64,000 bases of DNA from Eledone cirrhosa. Lineage: Eukaryota. Within the stretch, counting starts at the first letter, position 1, and every line of letters starts with the position of its first letter. The notes beneath the pieces were generated by a model, which was not told the origin of the DNA, ran no database searches, and worked only from the letters and a program-made list of their open reading frames with translations. Shown here piece after piece: positions 26,123 through 61,229 of this stretch. The stretch lies in the NCBI GenBank assembly GCA_964016885.1, contig OZ024743.1, positions 251,534,001 to 251,598,000 of the forward strand. The letters are read 5' to 3'. The position numbers and the translations under genes are program-made.

Positions 26123-26455
26123 TCATCATCATCATCATCATCAACGTTTAACGTCCGTGTTCCACGCTTGCATGGGTTTGGACGGGGGTTTTCCCACTTG
26201 AGGCAAGAGTGATTATCTTGCTCGCATAGGACTATCTGGCAGGGTTTTCTACAGCTGGATGCCCTTCCTAACACCAACCACATTTACAGTGTGGGGCTGG
26301 GAGGTTTTTACCGTGTTGCCTACACGGCCACATTACAGTGTGAACTGTGTGTTTTTTTACGTGACACCTACACGATCTCATTTGTTTCGGCCTGGATGTT
26401 GTGGCACCAACATAACTTTACATTGAAAGGGGCGGTGTGGATGGGGTGGGGGTGG
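26123..26455 (-). mobile_element. RTE LINE 3'-UTR fragment with (GAT)n tail
   Basis: Near-identical reverse complement of 31165-31490; (TA)n on both sides. Confidence 0.9.
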
Positions 26456-26529
26456 TATATATATATATATTTATATATATGAGAGTGTTGAAGTTTGCTT
26501 GCCAAAACGACCATTTTATATATATATAG

Positions 26530-26936
<407 letters not shown>

Positions 26937-27621
26937 CATATATACACACTTATATATGTATATATATATATTCATATATATGTGTGTGTGTGTTTATATA
27001 GAAAGAGAATTATCTAACTTGTGAGCTACTAAAATTACCAGATCAATCAAAACACAATACATTATAACAACATTCTCCCAATCTACCTTGGTTTACTGCA
27101 ATTACTTTCAATATTGCGGATGTAAACATTGCTTGTGTTCGTGTGATGATTGTTTTGGGGTAGAATCTGAAGTTAATGAGAGTCCGTAATCAAGATGCTG
27201 ACATTACTCATCAATTTAGGCGTTAAAGCTAAAGCAATCTGCATAGCCACACTAATTATATTTACAAACATTATAGATTGCTTTGTATTCTTTCTGCAGA
27301 AATTTCTAAATGATTATTTGTTATCTTTTTACATAACATTGTGATAATTTTTATAAGACCACCTTAAATAATGTATGTGTGTGTGTGTGTGTGTGTGTAA
27401 ACACAAACACACACACATATTGCATCATCATTATCATTGTTTCTACATCCACTTTTCCAAGTTGGCATGAGTTGATAAGATGTCTTGAAACAATGTTTTA
27501 CAGCCAGTTGCCCTTCCTGGCACCAACTCATTTAGTCACCTCTTAAGAGATGCAGGGATTCAGTGCATCTATTTTAAAAATTGTAATGCACACAGCATAT
27601 ATATATATAAATATATATATA

Positions 27622-28430
27622 TATAGAGGGGAAAGACACAGAAGAGTATGTTTTTCTTTACAGGAATTTCAAACCACCAGCGTGAAGAGAATATAAGCTA
27701 CTAGAGACATTGGAAAAACATTAAAATTAAAAGTATAACTTAAAATGAGAAACCAACCTCATATCTAAGTCACACATGTTCAAACTCACAAGGAGAATTT
27801 TTCGCCATTTAAGTGGGTTCCAATTCGGCCCTGTGGGTCATCAGTATGTGGAAGGCTGATATTGTCTGCACTACTAGAGAGAACTAAAGTAAACTACCTT
27901 TCACACATGTAGATATAAGGGAAATATGTGTGTGCGGTCCAGGAAAACTCTTTCCTTTGAGCTCATTTAATGACAGGGTTATACGCGAGTCCTTTGCTCC
28001 ATTATTTTATTTGATATTTGCTCCTTGCGCTCTCTCTGCAGTTGAGCACCATAAATTGAACAGTATAGGCTGCCATTTCTAGCAGCTTGTACTGTTCATG
28101 CCACCGGTTACTGCCTCGTGCACGCATTTCCCTTATATCTACACGTGTGAAAGGTAGTTTACTTTAGTTCTCTCTAGTAGTTCAGACAATATCAGCCTTC
28201 CACATGCTGATGACCCACAGGGCCGAATTGAAACCCACTTAAATGGCGAAATATTCTCCTGGTGAGTTTGTACATGTGTGACTTAGATATGAGGTTGGTT
28301 TCTCATTTTAAGTTATACTTTTAATTTTAATGTTTTTCCTATGCCTCTATTAGCTTATATTCTCTTCACGCTGGTGGTTTGAAATTCCTGTAAAGAAAAA
28401 CACACTCTTCTGTGTCTTTCCCCTCTATAT
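27622..28430. mobile_element. Palindromic element with ~305-bp arms, ~195-bp spacer and mirrored HHR-like cores, in (TA)n
   Basis: 27622-27926 is the reverse complement of 28125-28430 with scattered mismatches. CTGATGA at 28207 (+) with GAAA at 28248; TCATCAG mirror at 27838-27844. Helices I and III are not convincing. Confidence 0.8.
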
Positions 28431-28434
28431 ATTG

Positions 28435-29072
28435 TATGATGAGAGCTTCAAGATAGAAAAGACTCATCAGTACTCTACCAACATGCTAAAATAGATCATA
28501 AGGGCAAATTAGAGAACATAGAAATAAAAATAAAATCTACACACAGAAAAGATGCAATGTTTAAACAAATCACAGAGGAAATAAACATATATGAACTCCA
28601 ACCAAAATTAAATAGAAAACATGAATGGAATAGCAACATCACAACTTACAATTAAGGACAAAATGAAAACACACACACACATAGAACAAACAACCAACTA
28701 GTGACATCTAAATAAACAAATAAATAAACAAATAAAAACACACACAGACACCCACACAAAAACAAGATGGCATAGGACAGAACAAAGGAGAGGCACAAAA
28801 AAAGAAAAGAATCTCCGGTCACTGATGAGGTCACAGAATGTGTGACGAAAGAACTTTGACAATATATGAACAACCATCCGGTTGTGGAACCACCTAACCA
28901 ACCGGAAATTTATAAATTTTTTAAATTTATAATTTAATTTATAATAAATTGGAGTGAAAGCAACTGGTGCATGTGTTTCTTATTGGCAACATGACCCTCC
29001 CAAAGTATAACAATATCGGTTTCAACACACGTTTTCAGATAAAGAATCTTGCTTAACAAATTCAGAAACGAA
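28435..29072 (+). mobile_element. PLE 3' remnant: GIY-YIG C-terminus followed by a pseudo-LTR with an HHR-like motif (28818-28860)
   Basis: Hand translation from ~28451: DRKDSSVLYQHAKIDHKG...DAMFKQITEEINIYELQPKLNRKHEWN. HHR-like GTCA-CTGATGA-GGTCACAGAATGTGTGAC-GAAAGAACTT-TGAC. Confidence 0.65.
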
Positions 29073-29086
29073 ATATATATATATAT

Positions 29087-31494
29087 GGGCCAAAAAGCAG
29101 GCTTGGAAAGTATGGCGGGATGGGGGAAGTAGAGAAGACTATCAAGTCGCCAGGAGGGAAGCTAGGAGACAAGTGTACTTCGCAAGAAGGGAAGCAGAGG
29201 AAAGAAAGTTCAAGCATGTTCTACAACGAGAGGACCAAAAACGTGAGGTGTTCAGGATTGCTAGGCAATGTGTCAAGGAAAACCGTGATATTGTCGGGGA
29301 GAAGTGTGTACTTAATGATGATGGCGTACTTGCCATCACCGACGCTGATAAGAAGGTAGCTTGGAAGTGTCACTACGAAAGGCTACTAAATGAGGAGAAT
29401 AAATGGGAGAAAGACAGTCTCCCCCACATCGACCCAATAGAGGGACCAGCAGTGTTAGTCGAAGGTAGTATAATAAGTAAGGGAATCAAAGATATGAAGT
29501 CGAGTAAGGCGGCTGGGCCTTCGGAAATAGTTGCTGAGATGCTGAAAGCCTCTGGAACGGTGGGACACACCATGGTCACCCGGATAGTAAACCAAGTCAT
29601 ACAGAATGGGGTTGTTCCGAAGGACTGGTGTAGTAGCATCATCATTAACTGTTATAAGGGTAAAGGAGATGCCCTAGATAGGAGTAACTATAGAGGCATT
29701 AAATTAATCGACCAGGTCATGAAGGTCACGGAAAAAGTAATAGCGCAACTAATCAGAGAGAGAATTGATCTAGATGAAATGCAGTTCGGGTTTGTGTCAG
29801 GCAAAAGTACCACAGGCGCTCTTTTCATTGTACGACAACTACAGGAGAAGTACCTAGCTAAAAGTAAACCCCTATACTTAGCTTTTGTCGATTTGGAGAA
29901 AGCCTTCGACAGAGTCCCCCGTTCCATTATCTGGTGGGCTCTTAGAAAACTAGGTGTTGACGAATGGCTTGTGAGAGCTATCCAAGCCATGTATAAAGAA
30001 ACAGTCAGCAAGGTTAGAATTAACAACGAATATAGTGAAGAGTTTAGCGTAAAAGTAGGTGTCCATCAGGGCTCTGTTCTTAGCCCCCTACTATTTATTA
30101 TTGCCCTTCAAGCTATAACAGAGGAGTTCAAGACCGGCTGCCCATGGGAACTCCTATACGCAGATGATCTAACGCTCATAGCTGAATCAATGGCCGAGCT
30201 AGAGAAGAAATTCCAAACATGGAAGCAGGCCTAGAATCAAAAGGCCTTAAAATTAACCTGGCTAAGACTAAAGTTCTAGTTTGTAGGAAAGAAAATAAGG
30301 CGCCGGTCCCTTACGGGAAATGGCTATGCTCAGTGTGTAGGAAAGGCGTAGGTAGAAACTCCATTTTATGTCCCAAATGCAAAGTATGGGTGCATAAAAG
30401 ATGTAGTGGGATCACAGGTAAGCTAACTAAGAACATAGATGTTACATGTAGCCGGTGCTCTGGTGCAATAAGTAGCAGCAAGTGCCCACAATACTAGCTC
30501 TTTCAATTGCGCAGGGGGTTCTATAGAAATAGTGGACAGCTTGCGTTACCTGGGTGACAAAATCAGCAGTGGTGGAGGGTGCTCTGAAAGTACAGTAGCT
30601 AGTCATAACTGGATGGAAAAAGTTCAGAGAACTTATACCACTATTAGCCGCTAAAGGGTTCTCCCTAAAAATGAAAGGCAGGTTGTATGATGCCTGCATA
30701 CGAACAGCAATGTTGCATGGCAGTGAGACCTGGGCATTGTGTGCAAAGGATATACGCAGACTAGAGAGGAACGAAGCTTGCATGCTCCGCTGGATGTGTA
30801 ATAGTAATATACGTGAACGGCAAAGCATAAACGAACTAAGGAAAAAATTAGAAATAAGAGGGATCAGATGTTGTTTACTCGAGGAAGGCTACGTTGGTAT
30901 GGTCACATGATGCGCATGAAAGACGACAGCTGTATAACTAAGTGCAGGGCAATAAAGATAGACGGTAGCCACGGAGTAGGCAGACCCAGAAAAACCTGGG
31001 ACGGGCTGATAAATTCCGACCTCACACACTTACACCTCTCCAAGACAATGTCACTGGACCGAGACCTTTGGCGGTTCTCAGTAATAGAGAAGACCTGCCT
31101 TACCTAAATACAAAGTTAAACCTACTACAATCAGTAGGCATCTCTAACAAAATACACCCCCGTCCCACCACCCCCACCCCATCTACACCGCCCCTTTCAA
31201 TGTAAAGTTATGTTGGTACCACAACATCCAGGCCGAAACAAATGAAATCGTGTAGGTGTCACGACAAAAAAACACACAGTCCACGCTGTAATGTGGCTGT
31301 GTAGGCAACACGGTAAAAACCTCCCAGCCCCACACTGTAAATGTGGTTGGTGTTAGGAAGGCATCCAGTTGTAGAAAACCCTCCAGACAGTCCTATGCGA
31401 GCAAGACAACCACTCTTGCCTCAAGTGGGAAAACTCCCATCCAAACCCATGCAAGCGTGGAACATGGACGTTAAACGATGATGATGATAATGAT
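29087..31494 (+). mobile_element. RTE-clade LINE, 5'-truncated and frameshifted; RT with PHD-like Cys-rich insert; (GAT)n tail
   Basis: KAAGPS, YKGKGD..DRSNYRGI, QFGF, FVDLEKAFDRV, GVHQGSVLSPLLF, LLYADD; CSVC..CPKCKVWVHKRCSG..CSRC; LRWYGHMMRM, GRPRKTW; 3' UTR ends GGACGTTAAACGATGATG. Confidence 0.95.
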
Positions 31495-32405: not shown

Positions 32406-32752
32406 AATATATTATCAAATGGAAACTATATTTATAAAACCATATTTATTTCATTATACATATTTCAAGGGCCACCAGAGCAAACTATGGTGCGTTTTCA
32501 TCAGATAAAATATAATATAGGTTAGTTTTATAAATAAATATTTACATACCCTTAAAAAATGCAACCATATCCAGGAGATTCCAACCAGAATGGTTGCATT
32601 TTTTAAGGGTATGTCAATATTTATTTATAAAACTAACCTATATTATATTTTATCTGATGAAAGCACACCATAGTTTGCTCTGGTGGCCCTTGAAATATGT
32701 ATAATGAAATAAATATGGTTTTATAAATATAGTTTCCATTTGTTAATATATT
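32406..32752. mobile_element. Palindromic HHR element (~163-bp arms, ~21-bp spacer) next to a long (TA)n
   Basis: 32406-32568 is the reverse complement of 32590-32752. Right arm ATTTTAT-CTGATGA(32654)-AAGCACACCA...TGGTGGCCCTT-GAAA-TATGTA-TAATGAAAT; mirror on the minus strand. Confidence 0.8.
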
Positions 32753-32754
32753 TT

Positions 32755-33432
<678 letters not shown>

Positions 33433-34231: not shown

Positions 34232-35172
34232 AATACTTGGGTGACAAAATCAGCAGTGGTGGAGGGTGCTCTGAAAGTACAGTAGCCAGAGTTAGAACGG
34301 GATGGAAAAAGTTCAGAGAGCTTATACCGCTGTTGGCCATAAAAGGTTTCTCTCTGAAAATGAAAGGCAGATTGTATGATGCCTGTATACGAACAGCAAT
34401 GTTACATGGCAGTGAGACATGGGCATTGTGTGCAGAGGGCCTGTGCAGACTGGAAAGGATTGAAGCATGCATGCTCCGTTGGATGTGTAATAATAATATA
34501 CAAGAACGACTAAACATAAATGAACTAAGTGAGAAATTAGGAATAAGAGGGATCAGATGCTGTTTACTTGAGAGGAGACTACGTTGGTATGGTCACGTGA
34601 TGCGCATGAAAGATGACAGCTGTATAAAAAATTGCAGGGCGATCAAAATTGATGGAAGTTATGGAGTAGGTAAACCCAGAAAAACCTGGGACCACTTAAT
34701 AAATTATGACACATGCAACTCTCTAAGTCAATGTCACTGGATCGAGATCTTTGGCACCATGCAGTAATATAGAAAACCCGCCTTCCCTACGTGCAAAATT
34801 AGCCTACAGTCAGTAGGCTCCTCCAAACCAAACATACACTCCAACCCACTACCCCTACTCCATCCTTCCACTCCTGCCAACACCACCGTTTCTCTATAAA
34901 GTAATGTTGGTACCACAACATCCAGTCCAAACTAATGAGGTAAAAAAAAAACAACATACAGTCCACGCTGTAATGTGGTTGTGTAGGTAACACAGTAAAA
35001 AGCTCCCAGTCCAAACTGTAAATGTGGTTGGTGTTAGAAAGGGCAGCCAGCCATAGAAAACCTGCCAGATAGCCCTATACGAGTGAGACACGGTCACCTG
35101 ACCAATCTTGCCTCAAATGGGACAATTCCCATCTAACTCATGCTAGCGTGGAAGATGGACGTTAAATGATAA
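34232..35172 (+). mobile_element. RTE LINE 3' fragment, same family as 29087-31494
   Basis: YLGDKISSGGGCSESTVARVRTGWKKFREL...LRWYGHVMRM plus homologous 3' UTR. Confidence 0.92.
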
Positions 35173-35289
35173 TGCTGATTGCAGTGAAGTGAAGTATGGG
35201 GAGGTGAGTGGTAGAAGTTAAAATAAAATAAAATACAATAAATGAGATAAAACTTCTTTAAAAATGGTATATGTTTTGTGTTTTATTGT

Positions 35290-35960: not shown

Positions 35961-37146
35961 TCTCTCTGTTTTCCTTAGTATGGCAGCTCAATGTGGACCC
36001 AGGTTTTGTCTTTGTTTTCTCATTTCCTTCTGGGTCTGTTACGGGGTCCTGCAGTGCATGATTAGGTCCTGGTGGAATCTATGGCCTTGTTTGTCTGAGA
36101 TCTTCAATGGCAGATATCTTATGAGTGATTAACATTAACCACAAGGGACAGAATGGACAACCCATGGGATTGATTAAACTTCCAGGTCCATATCTGACAT
36201 TGGTATAAGAAATGAAAATACATACAACTTGATTATGCTGTTTTCCGATTTTTATATAATTAAACTTTATTGTCTATTTTATATTCTATTACTGATTTAT
36301 TTATATATTTTTGTATACTCCTGGGGCTGACAAGGCGGCAAAGGTTCCATGAGGAGTCAAAGGTCTAAAATGTTTGGGGATCCCTGCTCTAGGGTATGTT
36401 CTACATCAAGTTCTTTAATATCTAGCCTAAAAAAATAATATCAAAGACTGAATGGGTGATGATATTATGTCTGGGAGGCTCTTATAGCTGATCAGATATG
36501 ATTGAGAAGGCAGCTGTGCACCAATACCTTAAAATAAAAGACCATATAATTATTGATGCATGTCACTCTGCAAATATGTGTGTGTGTGTGTGAGTGTGTG
36601 TGTGGACACAGGCATGAAATCCTAGGTTCAGTTCCACTGCATGAATTTTAGGTAAAGGTCATTTAAAATAACCTTGGGTTAACACAAACAGTCTGTAAGA
36701 AATTGGGTAGACAGAGACTGTTTGGAATCACATAAAATGAAATGTACTTCTTATTCAAAGGTCCAGCTTCGTCACATTGTGTCAGATTGATTAACCGTGA
36801 GAATTACAATGATAGTACATGTGTCTGTGGAATACTCAACCACTTTGACATTAAATAACTAGTTGAACATTAAGTTGATGGAACTACTAGATGTTCATCA
36901 TGGAAATCGATGGAGAATCTGTCATATATCTGAGTGTAATCACCTATATGTAAAGCTTGTGTTTGCATTATTGAACACATGGGTGTATGTATAGGTATAC
37001 ATACACATGTGTGTGTGTGTGAATGTATATGCATATATATGTGTGAGTGTGTGTATATGTATGTATGCATATGTAAGTAAGAATGTATGCATTTATATAT
37101 ATATACAGGTGCATGTGTATGTCACTATGTATTTACTTATGCATAT

Positions 37147-38853
37147 ATTAGAAGATATTATGTCAGGTCACCAGTTGGTGCTACTGGTAACATGTATCCC
37201 AGTACAACCTGTCCCATGGTCGGGTCGTTGGCGACTAAACTGGCAACCCCACCAAGGTTTCTTGGTGAGGAGGGTGACTTTGGACATCCTGCAGGACTAA
37301 AAACAAAACCTGTCAAAAGGCAAAGGAGCTCTTAAGAGTCAATGGCCATCCAAAATCACCGGGAGAGATGACCCCTTAGCCTTTGTCAAGGCAGAATTCT
37401 AGGAGAAGGAAAACTCTGATATAACACCTGCAACCCTGATGGTATCCAATGATGTTGACTTGTTCTTCTTTTTGGTAAATATCATCTTGGTGAAGAGAGT
37501 GGGACTGGCTTTGTGCAGTGCCTTTGCTCACTATAAAAGCTTCACGGCACAGGCATTGCTTTATATCTGGAGATCTCTCTGCACTTGTCGTCACATGGTA
37601 CCATGGGCCCAGCACTATGTGTCAGTAATTGTCACAAGTGTAGTGTTTGTACCAGAGCTTTCAAGTCGCTGGCTGGACTAAAAAGTCACACTCGTTCAGC
37701 GCATCAGCAGGGGTTCTCCTACATGGATATAAAGTAGTGGCCGTACTCGAAAACGAGTTGGCAGCCACCATGTATGAATATATATATATGTATGTATATG
37801 TATATGTATGAATATATATATATGTATGTATATATATATATGTGAATATATATATATGTATGTATATATATATATATGAATATATATATGTATGTATGTA
37901 TGTATATATATGTATGTATGTATGTATGTATATGTATATGTATGTATGTATGTGTATATATATATATATGTATGTATGTATATATATATATATGTATGTA
38001 TGTATATATATATATATGTATGTATGTATGTACATGTATGTGTATGTATGTACATATGTATATATGTATGTATGTATGTACAACCTGTCTCATGGCCGGG
38101 TCGTTGGCGACTAAACTGGCAACCCCACCAAGGTTTCTTGGTGAGGAGGGTGACTTTGGACATCCTGCAGGACTAAAAACAAAACCTGTCAAAGGGAAAA
38201 GGAGCTCTTAAGAGTCAATGGCCATCCTAAATCACCGGGAGAGATGACCTTTTAGCCGTTGTCAAGGCAGAATTCTAGGAGAAGGAAAACTCTGATATAA
38301 CACCTGCAACCCCGATGGTATCCAATGATGTTGACTTGTTCTTCTTTTTGGTACATATCATCTTGGTTAAGAGAGTGGGACTGGCTTTGTGCACTGCCTT
38401 TGCTCACTATAAAAGCTTCACGGCACAAGCATTGCTTTATATCTGGAGATCTCTCTGCACTTGTCGTCACATGGTACCATGGGCCTAGCAGTATGTGTCA
38501 ATAATTGTCACAAGTGTAGTGTTTGTACCAGAGCTGGCTGCACTAAAAAGTCACACTCGTTCAACGCATCGGTAGGGGTTCTCCTACATGGATATGAAGT
38601 AGTGGCCATACTCGAAAACGAGTTGGCAGCCACCATGTATGTATGTATGTATATATGTGTGTATGTATATGTGTATGTATGTAAGTATGTATGTGTGTAT
38701 ATGTATATGTATGTATGTGTGTATGTATGTATATGTGTATATGTATATGTGTGTATATATGTGTATGTGTATATATGCGTATGTGTATGTATATGTGTGT
38801 GTATATATATATATGTATGTATGTGTATGTATATATGTATATATATATGTATG

Positions 38854-38885
<32 letters not shown>

Positions 38886-38895
38886 TGTATGTGTG

Positions 38896-38927
<32 letters not shown>

Positions 38928-40848
38928 TGTATGTATGTATGTGTGTATATGTATGTATGTCTATGTATGTATGTATGTATATGTATGTATGTATATGTAT
39001 GTATGTATATATTTTTTTTTTTTTTTTTGCGCGGGGACATAGAAATAATCGGGCTGGATGCCTGATCGCGCGGTTAAACCACTTGGGGTGAAGAACCCCT
39101 AGCCCTTGTCAGGGCATTCTTCTAGGAGAAGGCATCTCAGGAAACTGGGTGAACTCCGACATAAAACCTGCGGCTCAGTAGTTACCGATGATGTTGATCT
39201 TTTCATTTCAGGTTATAGCTACTGTCGCTCAGAGAGTGGGATTGGCTCAGTGCACAGTCTTTCCTCACTTTCAAAATATTTGTCACGCACAGGCATTGCA
39301 CGAGTGCATTAATAATTATTAATGGATGGCCATACTCGATAACGAGGGGGCAGCCATCATATATATATGTATGTATGTATATATATGTATATATGTGTAT
39401 GTATGTATGTGTGTATATATATATATATGTATGTATATATATGTATATGTATGTATGTATGTATATATATGTATGTATGTATGTATGTTTATGTATGTAT
39501 ATGTGTATGTATGTATATGCGTATGTATGTATGTGTATATGTATGTATGTATATATGTATGTATGTATGTATGTATATATATATATTGGTTAAGAGAGTG
39601 GGACTGGCTTTGTGCAGTGCCTTTGCTCACTATAAAAGCTTCACGGCACAGGCATTGTTTTATATCTGGAGATCTCTCTGCACTTGTCATCACATGGTAC
39701 CATGGGCCCAGCACTATGTGTCAATAATTGTCACAAGTGTAGTGTTTGTACCAGAGTTTTCCAGTCGCTGGCTGGACTAAAAAGTCACACACGTTCAGCC
39801 CATCGGTAGGGGTTCTCCTACATGGATATAAAGTAGTGGCCGTACTCGAAAACGAGTTGGCAGCCACCATCTATGTATATATATATGTATGTATATGTAT
39901 ATGTATGTATATGTGTATATGTATATATGTATGTGTATATATGTATATGTATGTGTATATATGTATATATATGTATGTATATATGTATGTATATATGTAT
40001 GTATATGTGTATGTATGTATATGTGTATGTATGTGTATATATGTATGTATATGTGTATATATGTATGTATATATGTATATACGTGTGTATATGTGTATAT
40101 ATGTATGTATATATATATATGTATATATGTATATATGTATATATATATATGTATATATGTATGTGTATATATGTATATATGTATATGTGTATGTATATGT
40201 TTATGTATATATGTATATATATATGTATGTCAGGTCACCCGTTGGTGCTACTGGTAACATGTATCCCAGTACAACCTGTCTCATGGTCGGGTCGTTGGCG
40301 ACTAAACTGGCAACCCCACCAAGGTTTCTTGGTGAGGAGGGTGACTTTGGACATCTTGCAGGACTAAAAACAAAACCTGTCAAAGGGCAAAGGAGCTCTT
40401 AAGAGTCAATGGTCATCCAAAATCACCGGGAGAGATGACCCCTTAGCCTTTGTCAAGGCAGAATTCTAGGAGAAGGAAAACTCTGACATAACACCTGCAA
40501 CCCTCATGGTATCCAATGATGTTGAGTTCTTCTTCTTTTTGGTAAATATCATCTTGGTTAAAAGAGTGGGACTGGCTTTGTGCAGTGCCTTTGCTCACTA
40601 TAAAAGCTTCACGGCACAGGCATTGCTTTATATCTGGAGATCTCTCTGCATTTGTCGTCACATGGTACCATGGGCCCAGCACTATGTGTCAATAATTGTC
40701 ACAAGTGTAGTGTTTGTACCAGAGTTTTCAAGTCGCTGGCTGGACTAAAAAGTCACACTCGTTCAGCGCTTCGGTAGGGGTTCTCCTACATGGATATAAA
40801 GTAGTGGCCGTACTCGAAAACGAGTTGGCAGCCACCATTAGAAGATAT
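37147..40848 (+). mobile_element. Concatemer of five bipartite non-autonomous RTE-derived elements separated by long (TATG)n/(TA)n tails, flanked by a 12-bp direct repeat
   Basis: Family A (~610 bp): 37160-37770, 38077-38636, 39586-39870, 40227-40838. Shorter family B: 39029-39360. Both share CTAGGAGAAGG, GAGAGTGGGA.TGGCT and the 3' end GGCC.TACTCGA.AACGAG..GGCAGCCA.CAT. ATTAGAAGATAT at 37147-37158 and 40837-40848. Confidence 0.85.
37603..37737 (+). other. 44-codon remnant ORF with one C2H2 zinc finger (RTE ORF C-terminus)
   Basis: [44 protein letters not shown]; intact only in copy 1, disrupted by indels in the other copies. Confidence 0.6.
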
Positions 40849-40881
40849 GCATGCCTATATATATGTATGTATATATATATG

Positions 40882-40924
<43 letters not shown>

Positions 40925-40929
40925 AGCAG

Positions 40930-40975
<46 letters not shown>

Positions 40976-41033
40976 AACGAGTAGGACCCCGACGGCTGAG
41001 CTCAAGCCGTTTCGACGGCTAATTCTGGACTAA

Positions 41034-41822: not shown

Positions 41823-42003
41823 GCTACTACTACTGCTGCTGCTGCTGCTGCTACTACTACTGCTGCTGCTGCTACTACTACTACTGCTGCTACTGCTACT
41901 GCTGCTACTACTACTACTGCTACTACTACTACTGCTACTACTACTGCTGCTACTGCTACTGCTACTACTACTACTACTACTACTACTGCTACTACTACTA
42001 CTG

Positions 42004-42036
<33 letters not shown>

Positions 42037-42165
42037 ATACTACTACTACTACTACTGCTACTGCTGCCGCTACTACTACTGCTACTACTACTGCTACTGC
42101 TACTACTACTACTGATACTACTACTGCTGCTTCTACTACTACTACTACTACTACTACTTCTGCTG

Positions 42166-42236
<71 letters not shown>

Positions 42237-42243
42237 TCTGCTG

Positions 42244-42278
<35 letters not shown>

Positions 42279-42327
42279 ACTACTACTGCTGCTGCTGCTG
42301 CTGCTACTACTGCGGCTGCTGCTGCTG

Positions 42328-42371
<44 letters not shown>

Positions 42372-42534
42372 GCTACTACTACTGCTGCTACTACTACTAC
42401 TGCTGCTACTGCTACTACTACTGCTACTGCTACTACTACTACTGATACTACTACTGCTGCTGTTACTACTACTACTACTACTACTTCTGCTGCTACTACT
42501 ACTACTACTACTACTTCTGCTGCTACTACTACTA

Positions 42535-42602
<68 letters not shown>

Positions 42603-42630
42603 ACTACTACTACTACTACTACTTCTGCTG

Positions 42631-42680
<50 letters not shown>

Positions 42681-42698
42681 GCTACTCTTATTACTACT
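41823..42698. repeat. Mixed (CTA)n/(CTG)n trinucleotide microsatellite, ~875 bp
   Basis: Directly visible. Confidence 0.97.
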
Positions 42699-45085: not shown

Positions 45086-45903
45086 TGGCAGGCTGTATGA
45101 TGCCTGCATACGAACAGCAATTTTACATGGCAGTGAGACTTGGGTATTGTGTGCAGAGGATATACGCAGACTGGAGAGGAACAAAGCTTGCATGCTCCGT
45201 TGGATGTGTAATAGTAATATACGTGAACGGCAAAGCATAAATGAACTAAGGGAGAAATTAGGAATAAGAGGGATCAGATGTTGTTTACTCGAGAGAAGAC
45301 TACGTTGGTATGGTCACTTGATGGGCATGAAAGACACAGCTGTATAAAAAAGTGCAGGCCGATAAAGATAGATGGTAGCCACGGAGTAGGCAGACCCAGA
45401 AAAACCTGGGACGACTTGATAAATTCCGACCTCACACACTTACACCTCTCCAAGACAATGTCACTGGACCAAGATCTTTGGCGCTACACAGTAATACAGA
45501 AGACCCATCTTGCCTAAGAACAAAGCGAAACCTACAGTCAGTAGGCACCTCTTAACAAAAATACACCCCCGTCCCACTACCCCCACCCCATCCACACCAC
45601 CCCTTTCAATGTAAAGTTATGTTGGTACCACAACATCCAGTCCGAAATAAATGAGGTCGTGTAGGTGTCACGACAAAAGAACACACATTCCACGCTGTGA
45701 TGTGGCCGTGTAGGTAACACGGTAAAAACCTCCCAGTCCACACTGTAAACGTGGTTGGTGTTAGGGAGGGCATCCAGCCGTAGAAAACCCACTATACTAG
45801 CAAGACAACCAATCTTGTCTCAAGTGGGAAAATTCCCGTCCAAACCCATGCAAGAGTGGAAGATGGAAGTTAAACGACGATGATGATGATGATGATGATG
45901 ATG
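45086..45903 (+). mobile_element. RTE LINE 3' fragment with (GAT)n tail
   Basis: GRLYDACIRTA..HGSETW...GRPRKTW plus 3' UTR, highly similar to 30675-31490. Confidence 0.92.
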
Positions 45904-47859: not shown

Positions 47860-50800
47860 TGCAAATGTTGATGCTGCTAATGTTATTGTTGTTCCTGTTG
47901 TTGTTGCTGCTGTGGTTGTTGCTAATGTAGCTGTGGCTGTTATTGTTGTTGTTGCTATTATTGTTGTTCCTGTTATTGTTGTTGTTGCCAATGAGCTTGT
48001 TGCTACTAATGTTGTTTCGGTTATTGTTGTTGTTGTTGCCAATGAGATGTTGCTACTATTGTTGTTCCTGTTATTGTTGTTGTTGTTGCTAATGAGGTTG
48101 TTGCTACTATTGTTGTTCCTGTTATTGTTGTTGTTGTTGCTAATGAGGTTGTTGCTACGATTGTTGTTCCTGTTATTGTTGTTGTTGTTGCTAATGAGGT
48201 TGTTGCTACGATTGTTGTTCCTGTTATTGTTGTTGTTGCTAATGAGGTTGTTGCTAATATTGTTGTTCCTGTTATTGTTGTTGCTAATGTGGTTGTTGCT
48301 ACTATTGTTGTTCCTGTTATTGTTGTTGCTAATGTGGTTGTTGCTACTATTGTTTTTCCTGTTATTGTTGTTGTTGTTGCCAATGAGGTTGCTGCTAATA
48401 TTGTTGTTCCTGTTATTGTTGTTGTTGTTGCTAATGAGGTTGTTGCTACTATTGTTGTTCCTGTTATTGTTGTTGTTGTTGCTAATGTGGTTGTTGCTAC
48501 TATTGTTGTTCTTGTTATTATTGTTGTTGATAATGAGGTTGTTGCTACTAATGTTGTTTCGGTTATTGTTGTTGTTGCCAATGAGGTTGTTGCTACTATT
48601 GTTGTTCCTGTTATTGTTGTTGTTGTTGCTATTGAGGTTGTTGCTACTATTGTTGTTCCTGTTATTGTTGTTGTTGCTAATGAGGTTGTTGCTAATATTG
48701 TTGTTCCTGTTATTGTTGTTGCTAATGTGGTTGTTGCTACTATTGTTGTTCCTGTTATTGTTGTTGTTGCTAATGTGGTTGTTGCTACTATTGTTGTTCT
48801 TGTTATTATTGTTGTTGATAATGAGGTTGTTGCTACTATTGCTGTTCCTGTTATTGTTGTTGTTGCTACTATTGTTGTTCCTGTTATTGTTGTTGCTAAT
48901 GTGGTTGTTGCTACTATTGTTTTTCCTGTTATTGTTGTTGTTGTTGTTACCAATGTGGTTGTTGCTACTTTTGTTGTTCCTGTTATTGTTGTTGTTGTTG
49001 CTAATGTGGTTGTTGCTACTATTGTTTTTCCTGTTATTGTTGTTGTTGTTGCTAATGAGGTTGTTGCTACTATTGTTGTTCCTGTTATTGCTGTTGTTGT
49101 TGCCAATGAGGTTGTTGCTACTGTTGTTGTTCCTGTTATTGTTGTTGTTGCTAATGAGGTTGTTGCTACTGTTGTTGTTCCTGTTATTGATGTTGTTGCT
49201 AATGAGGTTGTTGCTACTATTGTTGTTCCTGTTATTGTTGTTGTTATTGCTAATGAGGTTGTTGCTACTATTGTTGTTCCTGTTATTGTTGTTGTTATTG
49301 CTAATGAGGTTGTTGCTACTATTGTTGTTCCTGTTATTGTTGTTGTTGCTAATGAGGTTGTTGCTACTGTTGTTGTTCCTGTTATTGATGTTGTTGCTAA
49401 TGAGGTTGTTGCTACTATTGTTGTTCCTGTTATTGTTGTTGGTGCTAATGAGGTTGTTGCTACTATTGTTGTTCCTGTTATTGTTGTTGTTATTGCTAAT
49501 GAGGTTGTTGCTACTATTGTTGTTCCTGTTATTGTTGTTGCTAATGTGGTTGTTGCTACTATTGTATTTCCTGTTATTGTTGTTGTTGTTGCTAATGCGG
49601 TTGTTGCTACTATTGTTGTTCCTGTTATTGTTGTCGTTGTTGCCAATGAGGTTGTTGGTACTATCGTTGTTCCTGTTATTGTTGACGTTGTTGCCAATGA
49701 GGTTGTTGCTACTATTGTTGTTCCTGTTATTGTTGTTGTTGCTAATGAGGTTGTTGCGACTATTGTTGTTCCTGTTATTGTTGTTGTTGCTAATGAGGTT
49801 GTTGCGACTGTTGTTGTTCCTGTTATTGTTGTTGTTGTTGCTTATGTGGTTGTTGCTACTATTGTTGTTTCGGTTATTGTTATTGTTGTTGTTGCTAATT
49901 AGGTTGTTGCTACTATTGTTTTTCTGGTTATTGTTGTTGATGCTAATGAGGTTGTTGCGACTGTTGTTGTTCCTGTTATTGTTGTTGTTGCTAATGAGGT
50001 TGTTGCTACTATTGTTGTTATTGTTGTTGTTGCCAATGTGGTTGTTGCTACTATTGTTATTCATGTTGTTGTTGTTGTTGTTCCTGTTATTGTTGTTGTT
50101 GTTGCCAATGTGGTTGTCACGACTATTGTTGTTGTTGCCAATGTGGTTGTTGCTACTATTGTTGTTCCTGTTATTGTTGTTGTTGTTGCTAATGAGGTTG
50201 TTGCTACTATTGTTGTTCATGTTATTGTGGTTGCTAATGTGGTTGTTGCTGCTATTGTTTTTCCTGTTATTGTTGTTGTTGTTGTTGCTAATGCGGTTGT
50301 TGCTACTATTGTTGTTCCTGTTATTGTTTTTGTTGTTGCCAATGAGGTTGTTGGTACTATTGTTGTTCCTGTCATTGTTTTTGTTATTGCTAATGAGGTT
50401 GTTGCTATTATTGTTGTTCCTGTTATTGTGGTTGTTGTTGCCAATGTGGTTGTTGCTACTATTGTTGTTCCTGTTATTGTTGTTGTTGTTGCTAATGAGG
50501 TTGTTGCTACTGTTGTTGTTCCTGTTGTTATTGTTGTTGTTGTTGTTGCTAATGAGGTTGTTGCTACTGTTGTTGTTCCTGTCATTGTTTTTGTTGTTGC
50601 TAATGAGGTTGTTGCTACTATTGTTGTTCCTGTTATTGCTGTTGTTGTTGCCAATGAGCTTGTTGCTACTCTTGTTGTACTTGTTATTGTTGTTGCTAAT
50701 GAGATTGTTGCTACTATTGTTGTTCCTGTTATTGTTGTTGTTGTTACCAATGAGCTTGTTGCTACTCTTGTTGTTCCTGTTATTGTTGTTGTTGTTGCTA

Positions 50801-53800
50801 ATGAGGTTGTTGCTACTATTGTTGTTCCTGTCATTGTTGTTGTTGTTGCTAATGAGGTTGTTGCTACTGTTGTTGTTCCTGTTATATTGGTTGTTGCTAA
50901 TGAGGTTGTTGCTACTATTGTTTTTCCTGTTATTGCTGTTGTTGTTGCCAATTAGCTTGTTGCTACTCTTTTTGTACTTGTTATTGTTGTTGCTAATGAG
51001 TTTGTTGCTACTATTGTTGTTCCTGTTATTGTTGTTGTTGTTACCAATGAGCTTGTTGCTACTCTTGTTGTTCCTGTTATTGTTGTTGTTGTTGCTAATG
51101 AGGTTGTTGCTACTATTGTTGTACCTGTCATTGTTGTTGTTGTTGCTAATGAGGTTGTTGCTACTGTTGTTGTTCCTGTTATATTGGTTGTAGCTAATGA
51201 GGTTGTTGCTACTATTGTTTTTCCTGTTATTGTTGTTGTTGCTCATGAGGTTGTTGCTACTATTGTTTTTCCTTTTATTGTTGTTGTTGTTGCTAATGAG
51301 GTTGTTGCTGCTATTGTTGTTCCTGTGATTGTTGTTGTTGTTGCTAATGAGGTTGTTGCTACTGCTGTTGTGCCTGTTATTGATGTTGTGGCTAATGAGG
51401 TTGTTGCTACTATTGTTGTTCCTGTTATTGTTATTGTTGCTAATGTGGTTGTTGCTACTGTTGTTGTTTCTATTATATTTTTGTTGCTAATGAGGTTGTT
51501 GCTATTGTTGTTGTTTCTATTATATTTTTGTTGCTAATCGGGTTGTTGCTATTGTTGTTGTTCCTGTTATTGTTGTTATTTTTAATGTGGTTGTTGCTAC
51601 TATTGTTGTTCCTGTTATTGTTGTTGTTGCTTATGTGGTTGTTGCTACTATTGTTTTTTCGGTTATTGTTGTTGTTGTTGCTAATGAGGTTCTTGCTACT
51701 ATTGTTGTTCCTGTTATTGTTGTTGTTGCTAATATAGATGTTGCTACTATTGTTGTTCCCGCTGTTGGTGTTGCCAATGTGGTCGTTGCTACTGTTGTTA
51801 TTCCTGTTATTGTTGTTGTTGCTAATTAGGTTGTTACTACTGTTGTTGTTCCTGTTATTGTTGTTGTTGTTGCTAATGAGGTTGTTGCTACTATTGTTTT
51901 TCCTGTTATTGTTGTTGTTGTTGCTCATGAGGTTGTTGCTACTATTGTTGTTCCTGTTATTGTTGTTGTTGCTAATGAGGTTGTTGCTACTGTTGTTGTT
52001 CCTGTTATTGATGTTGTTGCTAATGAGGTTGTTGCTACTATTTTTGTTCCTGTTATCGTTGTTGTTGCTTATGTGGTTGTTGCTACTATTGTTGTTTCGG
52101 TTATTGTCGTTGTTGTTGCTAATGAGTTTGTTGCTACTATAGTTGTTCCTGTTATTGTTGTTTGTTGCTAATGAGGTTGTTGCTACTATTGTTTTTCCTG
52201 TCATTGTTATTGTTGTTGACAATGAGGTTGTTGCTACTATTGTTGTTCCTGTTATTGTTGTTGTTGTTGCTAGTAAGGTTGTTGCTAGTATTGTTGTTCC
52301 TGTTATTGTTGTTGTTGATGCCAATGTGGTTGCTGCTACTTTTGTTGTTCATGTTATTGTTGTTGTTTTTGCAAATCTTGTTGTTGCTACTGTTGTTGTT
52401 CCTCTTATTATTGTTGTTGTTGCTAATAAGCTTGTTGCTACTGTTGTTGTTCCTGTTATTGTTGTTGTTGTTGTCAATGTGGTTGTTGCTACTATTGTTG
52501 TTCCTGTTATTGTTGTTCTTGTTGTCAATGTGGTTGTTGCTACTGTTGTTGTTCCTCTTATTGTTGTTGTTGTTGCTAATGAGCTTGTTGCTACTGTTGT
52601 TGTTCCTGTTATTGTTGTTGTTGTTGCCAATGTGGTTGTTGCTACTGTTGTTGTTCCTGTTATTGTTGTTGTTGCCAATGTGGTTGTTGCTACTATTGTT
52701 GTTCCGGTTATTGTTGCTGTTGCCAATGTGGTTGTTGCTACTATTGTTGTTCCTGTTATTGTTGTTCCTGTTATTGTTGTTGTTGCCAATGTGGTTGTTG
52801 CTACTATTGTTGTTCCTGTTATTGTTGTTGTTGTTACCAATGAGCTTGTTCCTACTATTGTTGTTCCTGTTATTGTTGTTGTTGTTGCTAATGAGGTTGT
52901 TGCTACTATTGTTGTTCCTGTCATTGTTGCTAATGAGGTTGTTGCTGCTATTGTTGTTCCTGTCATTGTTGTTGTTGTTGCTACTGTTGTTGTTCCTGTT
53001 ATTGTTGTTGCTAATGTGGTTGTTGCTACTATTGTATTTCCTGTTATTGTTGTTGTTGTTGCTAATGCGGTTGTTGCTACTATTGTTGTTCCTGTTATTT
53101 TTGTTGTTGTTGCCAATGAGGTTGTTGGTACTATTGTTGTTCCTGTTATTGTTGTTGTTGTTGCCAATGAGGTTGTTGCTACTATTGTTGTTCCTGTTAT
53201 TGTTGTAGTTGTTGCTAATGAGGTTGTTGCTACTATTGTTGTTCCTGTTATTGTTGTTGTTGCTAATGAGGTTGTTGCGACTGTTGTTGTTCCTGTTATT
53301 TTTGTTGTTGTTGCTTATGTGGTTGTTGTACTATTGTTGTTTCGGTTATTGTTATTGTTGTTGTTGCTAATGAGGTTGTTGCTACTATTGTTTTTCTGGT
53401 TATTGTTGTTGATGATAATGAGGTTGTTGCGACTGTTGTTGTTCCTGTTATTGTTGTTGTTGCTAATGAGGTTGTTGCTACTATTGTTGTTATTGTTGTT
53501 GTTGCCAATGTGGTTGTCGCTACTATTGTTATTCATGTTGTTGTTGTTGTTGTTCCCGTTATTGTTGTTGTTGTTGCCAATGTGGTTGTCACGACTATTG
53601 TTGATCCTGTTATTGTTGTTGTTGCCAATGTGGTTGTTGCTACTATTGTTGTTCCTGTTATTGTTGTTGTTGTTGCTAATGAGGTTGTTGCTACTATTGT
53701 TGTTCATGTTACTGTGGTTGCTAATGTGGTTGTTGCTGCTATTGTTTTTCCTGTTATTGTTGTTGTTGTTGTTGCTAATGCGGTTGTTGCTACTATTGTT

Positions 53801-56800
53801 GTTCCTGTTATTGTCTTTGTTGTTGCCAATGAGGTTGTTGGTACTATCGTTATTCCTGTTATTGTGGTTGTTGTTGCCAACGTGGTTGTTGCTACTATTG
53901 TTGTTCCTGTTATTGTGGTTGTTGTTGCCAATGTGGTTGTTGCTACTATTGTTGTTCCTGTTATTGTTGTTGTTGTTGCTAATGAGGTTGTTGCTACTGT
54001 TGTTGTTCCTGTTATTGTTGTTGTTGTTGCTAATGAGGTTGTTGCTACTGTTGTTGTTCCTGTCATTGTTTTTGTTGTTGCCAATGAGCTTGTTGCTACT
54101 GTTGTTGTTCCTGTTATTGATATTGTTGCTAATGAGGTTGTTGCTACTGTTGTTGTTCCTGTTATATTGGTTGTTGCTAATGAGGTTGTTGCTACTATTG
54201 TGTTTCCTGTTATTGCTGTTGTTGTTGCCAATGAGCTTGTTGCTACTCTTGTTGTACTTGTTATTGTTGTTGCTAATGAGGTTGTTGCTACTATTGTTGT
54301 TCCTGTTATTGTTGTTGTTGTTACCAATGAGCTTGTTGCTACTCTTGTTGTTCCTGTTATTGTTGTTGTTGTTGCTAATGAGGTTGTTGCTACTATTGTT
54401 GTACCTGTCATTGTTGTTGTTGTTGCTAATGAGGTTGTTGCTACTGTTGTTGTTCCTGTTATATTGGTTGTTGCTAATGAGGTTGTTGCTACTATTGTTT
54501 TTCCTGTTATTGTTGTTGCTAATGAGGTTGTTGCTACTGTTGTTGTTCCTGTTATTGTTGTTGCTAATGAGGTGGTTGCTACTATTGTTTTTCCTGTTAT
54601 TGTTGTTGTTGTTGCTAATGAGGTTGTTGCTACTCTTGTTGTTCCTGTTATTGTTGTTGTTGTTGCTCATGGGGTTGTTGCTACTATTGTTTTTCCTTTT
54701 ATTGTTGCTGTTGTTGCTAATGAGGCTGTTGCTACTATTGTTGTTCCTGTGATTGTTGTTGTTGTTGCTAATGAGGTTGTTGCTACTGTTGTTGTTCCTG
54801 TTATTGATGTTGTGGCTAATGAAGTTGTTGCTACTATTGTTGTTCCTGTTATTGTTATTGTTGCTAATGTGGTTGTTGCTACTGTTGTTGTTGCTACTGT
54901 TGTTGTTTCTATTATATTTTTGTTGCTAATGAGGTTGTTGCTACTGTTGTTGTTTCTATTATATTTTTGTTGCTAATCAGGTTGTTGCTATTGTTGTTGT
55001 TCCTGTTATTGTTGTTATTTTTAATGTGGTTGTTGCTACTATTGTTGTTCCTGTTATTGTTGTTGTTGCTTATGTGGTTGTTGCTACTATTGTTGTTTCG
55101 GTTATTGTTGTTGTTGTTGCTAATGAGGTTGTTGCTACTATTGTTGTTCCTGTTATTTTTGTTGTTGCTAATATAGATGTTGCTACTATTGTTGTTCCCG
55201 TTGTTGGTGTTGCCAATGTGGTCGTTGCTACTGTTGTTATTCCTGTTATTGTTGTTGTTGCTCATGAGGTTGTTGCTACTATTGTTGTTCCTGTTATTGT
55301 TGTTGTTGTTGCTAATGAGGTTGTTGCTACTGTTGTTGTTCCTGTTATTGATGTTGTTGCTAATGAGGTTGTTGCTACTATTGTTGTTCCTGTTATCGTT
55401 GTTGTTGCTTATGTAGTTGTTGCTACTATTGTTGTTTCGGTTATTGTTGTTGTTGTTGCTAATGAGTTTGTTGCTACTATGGTTGTTCCTGTTATTATTG
55501 TTGTTGCTAATGAGGTTGTTGCTACTATTGTTTTTCCTGTCATTGTTATTGTTGTTGACAATGAGGTTGTTGCTACTATTGTTGTTCCTGTTATTGTTGT
55601 TGTTGTTGCTAGTGAGGTTGTTGCTACTATTGTTGTTCCTGTTATTGTTGTTGTTGATGACAATGTGGTTGCTGCTACTTTTGTTGTTCCTGTTATTGTT
55701 ATTGTTTTTGCAAATCTTGTTGTTGCTACTGTTGTTGTTCCTCTTATTATTGTTGTTGTTGCTAATAAGCTTGTTGCTACTGTTGTTGTTCCTGTTATTG
55801 TTGTTGTTGTGGTCAATGTGGTTGTTGCTACTATTGTTGTTCCTGTTATTGTTGTTGTTGTTGCCAATGTGGTTGTTGCTACTGTTGTTGTTCCACTTAT
55901 TGTTGTTGTTGTTGCTAATGAGCTTGTTGCTACTGTTGTTGTTCCTGTTATTGTTGTTGTTGCCAATGTGGTTGTTGCTACTATTGTTGTTCCTGTTATT
56001 GTTGTTGTTGTTACCAATGAGCTTGTTGCTACTATTGTTGTTCCTCTCATTGTTGTTGTTGTTGCTAATGAGGTTGTTGCTGCTATTGTTGTTCCTGTCA
56101 TTGTTGTTGTTGTTGTTGCTACTGTTGTTGTTCCTGTTATATTGGTTGTTGCTAATGAGGTTGTTGCTACTATTGGTTTTCCTGTTATTGTTGTTGTTGT
56201 TGCTAATGAGGTTGTTGCTACTGTTGTTGTTCCTGTTATTGTTGTTGTTGCTAATGAGGTTGTTGCTACTATTGTTGTTCCAGTTATTGTTGCTGTTGCT
56301 AATGAGGTTGTTGCTACTATTGTTGTTCCTGTTATTGTTGTTGTTGCTAATTAGGTTGTTGCTACTATTGTTGTTCCTGTTATTGTTGTTGCTAATGTGG
56401 TTGTTGCTACTATTGTTGTTCCTGTTATTGTTGTTGTTGTTACCAATGAGTTTGTTGCTACTATTGTTATTCTTGTTATTGTTGTTGTTGTTGCTAATTA
56501 GGTTGTTGCTACTATTGGTTTTCCTGTTATTGTTGTTGCTAATGAGATTGTTGCTACTGTTGTTGTTCCTGTTATTGTTGTTGTTGTTGCTAATGAGGTT
56601 CTTGCTACTATTGTTTTTCCTGTTATTGTTGTTGTTGCTAATGAGGTCGTTGCTACTATTGTTGTTCCTCTCATTGTTGTTGTTGTTGCTAATGAGGTTG
56701 TTTGTACTGTTGTTGTTCCTGTTATTGATGTTGTTGCTAATGTGGTTGTTGCTACTATTATTGTTCCTGTTATATTTGTTATTGCTAATGAGGTTGTTGC

Positions 56801-59800: not shown

Positions 59801-59975
59801 TGAGGTTGTTGCTACTATTGTTGTTCCTGTTATTGCTGTTGTTGCTAATGAGGTTGTTGCTACTATTGTTGTTCCTGTTATTGCTGTTATTGCTTGCTGC
59901 AAATATTCTTGTTCCTTTTTGTTGTTGCTTATGTCGTTGTTGCTAATAATGTTGTTGTTGTTGTTGTTGTTGTAG
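47860..59975. repeat. 12-kb minisatellite, ~42-51 bp unit GCTAATGAGGTTGTTGCTACTATTGTTGTTCCTGTTATT(GTT)n, with higher-order duplications
   Basis: The unit is visible throughout. Identical ORFs at 57995 and 58812 give an 817-bp duplication; diagnostic variants recur ~3.4 kb apart (50038/53510, 51528/54967). Confidence 0.97.
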
Positions 59976-60391: not shown

Positions 60392-61021
60392 ACTATATAT
60401 ATATATATATATAAACACTATATATATATATGTTTCTTTTGTGCATGTATATAGTAAAGATAACTACGTTGAATTGCTGGATTGTGCAGTACATAAACAA
60501 ATGTCACCATATGTCATCAATTGAATTTGGACACATTGGGAAATAGGAAAAATTCCAGCATAAAAGCAAAACACTTCCTGAAGCATCACTTAAAATAATA
60601 CAATGAAAGAGAAGTTTACTCAGAGATGTAAGTGAGACTTATGGAATTTATAAAATGCAGACTTGTGTATGTATGTATGTATTTGTGTGTGTATACAAAC
60701 ATATATATATATATATATGTATTTGTGTATATATATATATATGTATTTGTGTATATATATATATGTATTTGTATATATACATATATATATATTTATATAT
60801 ACATATATATGTATATATATTTGATATATATATATACACACTTATATATACATATACATGTATATATATTTGTATATATATATGTATATTTGTGTGTGTA
60901 TATATATATATATATAACGGAGGAAATGTGGTAAGGAACCAGGTGGACCATAATGCACCAAAGTACTCAATACTTAGGGTAGTAGAGTGGGTAATAGGAA
61001 CGAGTAGGGTTCCTACTCGTT

Positions 61022-61076
<55 letters not shown>

Positions 61077-61229
61077 ATAAATGCTCTGAAATAGCGATAT
61101 ATATATGAATATAGACCTAGAATATTCGAAAATATTCTGTATGTTTATAATAAACATTTTGAAGACCTAATCGCTATAGAATAGAATACGTCACGTATTA
61201 CAATTAGATTCTCGATAAAAGCAAGGGAA

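Follow-up and report, generated by a model that had tools for sequence, protein, structure and literature searches.

How do five mobile elements of two families come to lie head to tail inside a single target-site duplication (TSD)? The question is raised by a 3.7-kb block that occupies positions 37147 to 40848 of a 64,000-nucleotide stretch of the Eledone cirrhosa genome (contig OZ024743.1, positions 251,534,001 to 251,598,000; hereafter the window). The block contains four copies of a family A (A1 to A4) and one copy of a second family, B, in the order A1, A2, B, A3, A4, with microsatellite tracts T1 to T4 between them. It is a real, well-formed structure that adds a new form to the chimeric or multimeric retroelements already known. 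The outer pair, A1 and A4, very probably was joined by an event at the RNA level. For the block as a whole we propose one target-primed reverse transcription (TPRT) event with serial template switching. This is the single likeliest of the models that we weighed, yet we rate its chance somewhat below even. Papers are cited by their PMC numbers.

Anatomy of the block and its single duplication

Exactly two occurrences of ATTAGAAGATAT were counted in the 64 kb of the window, one at 37147 and one at 40837, and none on the minus strand. The two copies stand at the outer ends of the block, just as the first-pass annotation of this DNA had assumed when it placed all five elements within one 12-bp TSD. 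On the left, 4 nt (TATG) separate the duplication from A1. On the right, it follows immediately 3' of A4 through a common AT, and A4 thus has a tail of at most 2 nt, with no remnant of a longer tail or of a tract. The tailless last copy and its AT junction had been described correctly as well.

Matches of this kind are rarely produced by chance. With independent, identically distributed bases, the estimate for the TSD is 9e-6 over 30 offsets, and none of 21,257 other 30-nt windows had 10 nt or more in common with the 16 nt at the start of the right flank. When the right flank was extended to 30 nt, which includes microsatellite, 67 of 6,139 windows reached 10 nt and none reached 12. The 23 nt preceding A1, compared in turn with the sequences behind the copies, find a match only after A4 (12 nt; the tracts give 6-7). 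The TSD shows that the outer pair at least arrived together; the inner three copies are not placed by it. Because A4 is tailless and abuts the TSD, the outer pair did not originate from plain insertion into a tail. Neither did it originate from re-use of the same site, since re-use of the kind seen in R1 arrays leaves a TSD between the copies (PMC3414825).

The reported composition of the block (four family-A copies, two of them full and two 5'-truncated, and one shorter family-B copy, all in the same orientation) holds at the coordinates of Table 1, and the 225-375 bp given for the internal tracts agrees with the lengths measured. All parts lie on the plus strand and are joined directly, the T17 run before B being the sole extra sequence. 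This run, the TATG after the left TSD, the deletion in A2 and the (A/G)T tracts just beyond both TSD copies (36983-37146 and 40856-40973) are absent from the first-pass annotation. The TATG may belong to the element as its 5' end, or it may mark where a further switch began. No additional A or B copy was found in the window by BLAST or by fuzzy motif search. BLAST also extended the similarity between A1 and A4 upstream to 37113 and 40179, which we rejected as microsatellite similarity only.

Table 1. Parts of the block and landmarks within it, in coordinates of the window
Feature	Position	Strand	Remark
Left TSD, ATTAGAAGATAT	37147..37158	+	present twice in the window
TATG, one tail unit between left TSD and A1	37159..37162	+	precedes A4 too; outside the right TSD copy
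A1, family A, 607 bp, full relative to A4, non-coding	37163..37769	+	2.8% from A4
RTE 5'-UTR conserved domain core, in A1	37399..37419	+	recurs in A2 (38275) and A4 (40466); B has it with an insertion
Tract T1, 310 bp of (A/G)T in strict alternation; GAA marks each of four 34-bp units	37770..38079	+
A2, family A, first 41 nt missing, internal 11-bp deletion	38080..38634	+
Tract T2, about 376 bp	38635..39011	+
T17 run, directly 5' of B	39012..39028	+	sole T run of at least 6 in the block
B, second family, 330 bp	39029..39358	+	matches A positions 191-397 and the last 42 nt
Tract T3, 228 bp	39359..39586	+
A3, last 282 nt of family A	39587..39868	+
Tract T4, 361 bp	39869..40229	+
A4, family A, 607 bp, full-length, no tail	40230..40836	+
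Predicted 3' hairpin common to A and B	40804..40835	+	by folding
Right TSD	40837..40848	+	leading AT doubles as first 2 bases of tail

Families A and B

Several features of their sequences support the view that A and B behave as bipartite non-autonomous elements derived from RTE long interspersed elements (LINEs). Family A contains the 21-nt string CTAGGAGAAGGAAAACTCTGA, which by-eye comparison found identical to the core string of the RTE 5' untranslated region (UTR) domain in OegopSINE and Sepioth-SINE1 (supplement of PMC5786205); the similarity, again by eye, extends into the flanks of the string. PMC5786205 reports the domain from the 5' UTRs of many RTEs and from short interspersed elements (SINEs) of cephalopods, and notes it in a single Ingi and a single R4 element as well. 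B resembles A over A positions 191-397 (about 67-68% match), where its copy of the domain bears an insertion, and again over the last 42 nt, a match that 0 of 2000 shuffles equalled.

This common 3' end is predicted to fold into a hairpin. Compared with 200 shuffles, its stability has a z of -2.5 in A (3/200 as stable) and -2.8 in B (2/200), and the outer stem pair shows a compensatory change, G-C in A and A-U in B. A shared hairpin with a compensatory pair would be expected if one enzyme recognises both families. The last 7 nt of the A/B end equal the end of the RTE-derived SINE2_Gav (material of PMC5786205). The 20-nt 3' pattern of A and B was also sought in prokaryotic contigs; the 8 loci obtained, as compared with about 4.3 by chance, include none longer than 28 nt and were rejected.

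Neither A4 nor B contains an open reading frame (ORF), stops breaking all six frames, and the 92-aa open stretch of A4 had no longer homologue among 27 candidates, which is a weak test. ARAGORN found no tRNA and Rfam no match in the window. When the block was submitted to Rfam on its own, 102 matches up to E 5 were returned, none at gathering score, the top ones being miRNA models on TA tracts. Runs of T that would stop RNA polymerase III (Pol III) lie inside the elements (T5 and T4 in A4, T4 in B). A tRNA-derived, Pol III-transcribed SINE was rejected because A and B have no tRNA, 5S or 7SL head and contain these T4-T5 runs. Our own descriptor of ribozymes like that of hepatitis delta virus (HDV), which is unvalidated and fired in 5 of 60 control stretches, detected none in A1, A4 or B, nor did Rfam. 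Folding of the 5' 100 nt gave z of -0.3 and -1.1 for A and -1.9 for B, and we claim no ribozyme. A 5' HDV-like ribozyme is a trait of some RTE families only.

Four of the five units have microsatellite tails, and the single TSD of 12 bp (10-12) is within the range of RTE elements, where 10-12 bp is commonest and 7-15 bp occurs (PMC6007223). The 5'-UTR domain, the shared 3' hairpin, the lack of an ORF, the microsatellite tails and the length of the TSD all agree with the earlier description of the copies as RTE-derived and non-autonomous. No autonomous RTE with this 3' end was found in the window or in the octopus paper supplements searched, and motif searches for A and B in the searched supplement files of PMC9115989 and PMC13282606 gave 0 hits.

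Origin of the block

The tracts T1-T4 are strict (A/G)T alternations without any phase shift. Only 14 sites in 1275 bp (1.1%) break the alternation, 10 of them independent when the fourfold GAA and the twofold TAC of T1 are each taken once. Ten control tracts of the window have 2.5-17% violations, and eight of the controls that were tokenised hold 0-21 TATG units, as compared with 37-65 in the tracts of the block. Fewer violations and more TATG units than in controls indicate that the block tracts are young and derived from tails. At the divergence of A1 and A4, 12.3 point changes are expected in the tracts and 14 are seen; a model with 10-fold growth after insertion expects 4.8 independent changes (p 0.025). 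The tracts were thus probably long at birth. This does not demonstrate their de novo synthesis by reiterative copying, as the first-pass annotation had proposed, because RNA tails may already be long and comparable mosaics exist elsewhere. One octopus RTE transcript, for example, ends in a 3' UTR of about 600 nt, most of it microsatellite (PMC9115989). The GAA-marked 34-bp repeat of T1 is compatible with re-priming by the polymerase and is not diagnostic of it. Slippage of reverse transcriptase (RT) that duplicates tail interruptions during TPRT was shown for Alu and L1 (PMC3415434), and slippage in reverse transcription was proposed as a source of microsatellites for RTE (PMC2887409). We nevertheless do not count the repeat as evidence, since marker-bearing repeats occur in other tracts of the window.

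Pairwise distances between the A copies amount to 2.8-4.5%. In the 271 columns covered by all four, every difference is private (A1 4, A2 8, A3 4, A4 3) and no derived variant is common to any two copies. Such star-like divergence is what independent source RNAs would produce. It makes recent local duplication, which the first description of the block had named as a possible refutation, unlikely. Over 554 columns, A1 has 6 private substitutions, A2 16 and A4 9. The share of A2 exceeds one third of the total (one-sided p 0.027) and its number exceeds that of A1 (p 0.026). Being the most diverged copy, A2 is mildly at odds with its own later nesting; A1, with the fewest private changes, is mildly at odds with having founded a source cluster long ago.

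At the start of A2, 3 nt of microhomology lie within a stretch that agrees in register with the tail repeat at 9/13 positions. Of 600 positions of A, 2 reach this score (at least 9/13 with 3 terminal matches; the criterion was set after seeing the junction). The junction of A3 has 7/13 with 1 terminal match, which is reached at 48 of 600 positions. Such microhomology would be expected from annealing to an RNA tail as well as from annealing to a tract in the DNA. B lacks a separate TSD: the T17 lacks a downstream counterpart, and the longest abutting suffix is 3 nt. Some rare markers recur between tracts (GCG in T2 and T3, TTT in T3 and T4; 38778, 39488, 39520, 40200), either by recurrent mutation or by shared descent.

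We observed the anatomy, the TSD, the RTE domain, the star-like divergence and the purity of the tracts; each step of the mechanism is what we infer from them. In the proposed course of events, an RTE protein supplied in trans would perform four template switches in one TPRT. A nick between T and A, before ATTAGAAG, would prime synthesis on the A4 RNA, immediately 3' of its hairpin, by means of 2 matching nt (AT). A4 would then be the first template copied, and the absence of its tail would follow from priming directly 3' of the hairpin. From A4, synthesis might proceed to the tails of the A3, B, A2 and A1 RNAs, in this order; the cDNA would end at the 5' ends of A4 and B and in the interior of A3 and A2. 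Each cDNA 3' end would anneal or be joined to the (AUGU)n/(AU)n tail of the next RNA, and the entire tail would be copied. The T17 before B could result from non-templated addition of A or from an oligo(U) end of the RNA. After A1, the cDNA would join the target, leaving the single TSD. Long RNA tails would have served as templates for the tracts, with a degree of polymerase slippage, and DNA slippage would have remodelled the tracts since.

Several observations count for this model. The one TSD has the length usual for RTE elements and borders the outer ends only. A4 has no remnant of a tail or tract, which insertion into an existing tail would leave. The A copies have no derived variant in common, A2 has more private changes (16) than A1 (6) and A4 (9), where later nesting predicts the reverse, and B lacks a duplication. 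The breakpoint of A2 matches the tail repeat at a score that few positions of A reach, none of the 10 control tracts has an A or B copy in or beside it, and the tracts have about as many changes as expected from the divergence of A1 and A4. There are also precedents. Tripartite chimeras framed by one direct repeat of 14-16 bp are known (PMC2104539). R2 proteins jump between templates in vitro and in vivo (PMC3414825 among the sources), and head-to-tail products of R2 were observed in cells. As to the earlier idea that a single TPRT event made the entire block, the TSD supports it for the outer pair; for the inner three copies the support is mild and comes from the absence of shared variants, from A2 not being younger and from B lacking a TSD. 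A bolder version goes further: RTE reverse transcriptase would have chained five RNAs of two families with the (AUGU)n tail as landing pad, and slippage in a 2-nt register, like an irregular telomerase, would have written the 230-380 bp (A/G)T mosaics, as a routine source of long compound microsatellites in this genome. We consider this quite unlikely.

A number of points weigh against serial template switching. The TSD constrains the outer pair only, and four switches need an unusually switch-prone enzyme. The largest published chimeras that we found have three parts, with one such case versus 33 bipartite ones in M. grisea (PMC2104539). Rodents commonly have SINE multimers with as many as eight units, whose origin is stated as unknown (PMC8466645), and no autonomous partner was located in the window or the octopus supplements searched. 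Further, the 19 nt before A2 and the 21 nt before A3 recur in the next tract, so that TSDs of these two copies may be hidden in the microsatellite. Other tracts match these stretches equally well or more closely (up to 25 nt), and since the recurrences do not surpass matches to unrelated tracts, TSDs of A2 and A3 are neither shown nor excluded. Of the internal duplications that the first-pass annotation had named as a threat to its reading, there is accordingly none for B, and for A2 and A3 there are recurrences at the level of unrelated tracts. The 20 nt before A4 also recur in the right flank past the TSD; as an own 20-bp TSD of A4 this was rejected, such matches being at chance level (16-28 nt among tracts). 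Later growth of the tracts is not rejected when it is fivefold (6.1 changes expected, p 0.09) or twofold (8.8, p 0.39), and the growth model ignores purging of interruptions by slippage. A CT(A/G) mosaic of 867 bp (41824-42698), also in strict phase and with 1.7% violations, has no A or B beside it, and tracts at 14673, 33431, 60330 and 60666 contain marker-bearing higher-order repeats. Finally, the chi-square for unequal divergence is not significant (three-way p 0.078, four-way p 0.38), and a subfamily difference can mimic greater age of A2.

Other histories have to be compared with this one. Two of them, a dimer filled by later insertions and the read-through of a finished cluster, would likewise leave a single TSD and were not considered in the first-pass annotation. 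A dimer of A1, tail and A4 might have been inserted first, through one switch or from a dimeric RNA, and A2, B and A3 might have entered its (A/G)T tail later and singly, their TSDs being invisible there. A single switch suffices in this case, and strand-asymmetric pairing of the tail with the RNA tails of the elements accounts for the common orientation. The recurrence downstream of the 19 and 21 nt preceding A2 and A3 fits such insertions. So does the fact that RTEs of the Bov-B type cut at TA (PMC13295347), as the outer target lies between T and A in a TATG-rich stretch, and mixed-family head-to-tail SINE multimers are common in rodents (PMC8466645). However, the inner A2 is the most diverged copy and not the youngest, B shows no duplication and has T17 in front of it, and none of the 10 control tracts of the window has an A or B copy in or beside it, with the reservation that the locus itself was picked for its cluster. 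We regard this history as unlikely, though it deserves to be taken seriously. Insertion into tails alone, in the manner of SINE multimers, was rejected: it cannot make the outer pair, as A4 has neither its own tail nor a remainder of a host tail before the TSD. Rather unlikely in our opinion is the assembly of the five-part cluster elsewhere, followed by transcription of one 3.7-kb read-through RNA from A1 and its retrotransposition as a whole from the hairpin of A4. One TSD, the full-length 5' copy, the tailless 3' copy, the unequal divergence and tracts long at birth would all be accounted for, with no need of switches or reiterative copying. The length of 3.7 kb is that of an RTE transcript, octopus RTE RNA has the long microsatellite 3' UTR mentioned above (PMC9115989), and multimeric templates are named as an open possibility (PMC8466645). 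On the other hand, a source grown in the tail of A1 would make A1 the oldest copy, yet it has the fewest private changes (6 versus 16 in A2, p 0.026), and both a source locus, which is not in the window, and priming at the last of five hairpins are required.

The remaining alternatives do without any multi-template TPRT. A solo tailless A with its TSD could have been expanded by break repair or recombination from another locus, with A1 and A4 as reciprocal hybrids, or the block could be a misassembly through repeats. One TSD and a tailless last copy would then be explained, and the window does hold an array of 310-bp units, 100% identical and containing an inversion (61071-63920), that may be an artefact. 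Recombination requires a donor cluster. As for misassembly, the window is free of N and runs through a 12-kb satellite, as long-read assemblies do, and copies 2.8-4.5% apart differ enough for long reads to separate them. We find these explanations distinctly improbable. Local tandem duplication of A with its tail, or independent neighbours with an accidental 12-bp match, is extremely improbable. Duplications that took place right after insertion would look star-like too, but no derived variant is shared in 271 columns, the 5' ends differ, a second family stands in the middle of the block, the tracts differ in make-up, and the chance of the TSD is about 1e-5.

Neighbouring features, related systems and significance

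The rest of the window is rich in other repeats. A broken LINE at 29011-31494, with RT and a downstream PHD finger (Pfam; 3854 homologues), ends in (ATG)n and is presumably RTEX-like. As an autonomous partner of A and B it was rejected because of its different 3' end and its (ATG)n tail. BLAST detected 3' fragments of this LINE at 34234-35179 and 45087-45893 and, on the minus strand, at 26145-26455 and 7056-7237. A SINE-like element at 33093-33430 has a tRNA-like head by eye (ARAGORN made no call) and one segment in common with the 3' UTR of the same LINE. The TA tracts on both sides of it bear the same TAATT markers, which suggests insertion into a microsatellite. A frame with one stop at 26482-26981 abuts a 146-bp TA tract; its 52-aa piece tested had no Pfam hit, but judging by a motif the frame resembles the C-terminus of an RTE-type ORF. 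The 520-aa open frame at 986-2548 on the minus strand, also without a Pfam hit, we take to resemble Penelope RT with GIY-YIG. Fragments of DDE_1 and HTH_Tnp_Tc5 at 20147-21219 (minus strand) belong to a transposase of the pogo/Tigger type.

Tandem and inverted repeats are present as well. A 12-kb satellite of TGT triplets with a 48-51 bp higher-order period extends over 47881-59972. At 61024-63956, a 310-bp unit is repeated in 6.4 perfectly identical tandem copies and then in 2.8 inverted ones, with (TA)n on either side; either it is a TA-flanked element of very recent date, or it is an artefact of assembly. The sequence TAGGAACGAGTAGG appears at edges of TA tracts (40970-40986 and 60995-61030, palindromic at the second) and is possibly the end of a TA-targeting element. 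Fold-back palindromes were noted at 27619-28432, 32464-32693 and 6576-6843, several adjoining TA tracts; one has 312-bp arms at 96%, and two are near-perfect hairpins of 230-270 bp.

Among known systems, the bipartite non-autonomous RTE LINEs (RTE-N, RTESINE, Bov-A/Bov-A2; PMC5786205) resemble the parts of the block in being non-coding, in the RTE 5'-UTR domain, in the short 3' end with hairpin and microsatellite tail, in TSDs of 10-12 bp and in the lack of a tRNA head. The block differs from them in uniting five units of two families under one TSD, in its tails of 228-376 bp and in having no detected 5' ribozyme. Template-switch chimeras such as WEIRD-MgSINE-MGL in Magnaporthe and B2-U6-L1 in mouse (PMC2104539) are likewise made of co-oriented, directly joined RNA copies, some of them 5'-truncated, with a full-length 5' part and one short flanking direct repeat. 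These consist of two or three parts and not of five, whereas the parts of the block are all non-autonomous relatives, with joints running through microsatellite tails. Also, the 3' part of the chimeras is mostly a 5'-truncated autonomous LINE, in contrast to the full-length and non-autonomous A4 at the 3' end of the block.

Head-to-tail SINE multimers, as Dip/B1 in jerboa with up to eight units and B2/B1 in mouse (PMC8466645; for mixed multimers in jerboa see also PMC10702118), share with the block the mixture of families, the common orientation and the joining through tails; according to PMC8466645 their mechanism is unresolved. They are made of Pol III SINEs with A-rich tails, whereas the last unit of the block is tailless and abuts the TSD. 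Microsatellites born with RTE insertions in Lepidoptera (PMC2887409) and Alu tails expanded by slippage of L1 ORF2p (PMC3415434) lie between TSD copies, as the tracts of the block do, and a microsatellite in this position was absent from the site before insertion. Those tails sit at the outer 3' end, in contrast to the tracts of the block, which lie between elements, extend over hundreds of bases and have near-random A/G in strict phase. A five-part RTE-derived block under one TSD was not found in the literature searched, which lacked most subscription papers.

According to PMC8466645, the question whether head-to-tail retroelement multimers arise by insertion into tails, from multimeric templates or by template switching has yet to be settled, and among the natural chimeras that we found with a clean direct repeat, none has more than three parts (PMC2104539). 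Five parts, a non-repetitive TSD and a tailless last unit make the present block an unusually clean test case. If one of the rival histories is true, then the block arose as an ordinary by-product in a genome rich in microsatellites. If serial switching is true, then RTE enzymes would be far more switch-prone in vivo than L1, and kilobases of microsatellite would be possible with each insertion.

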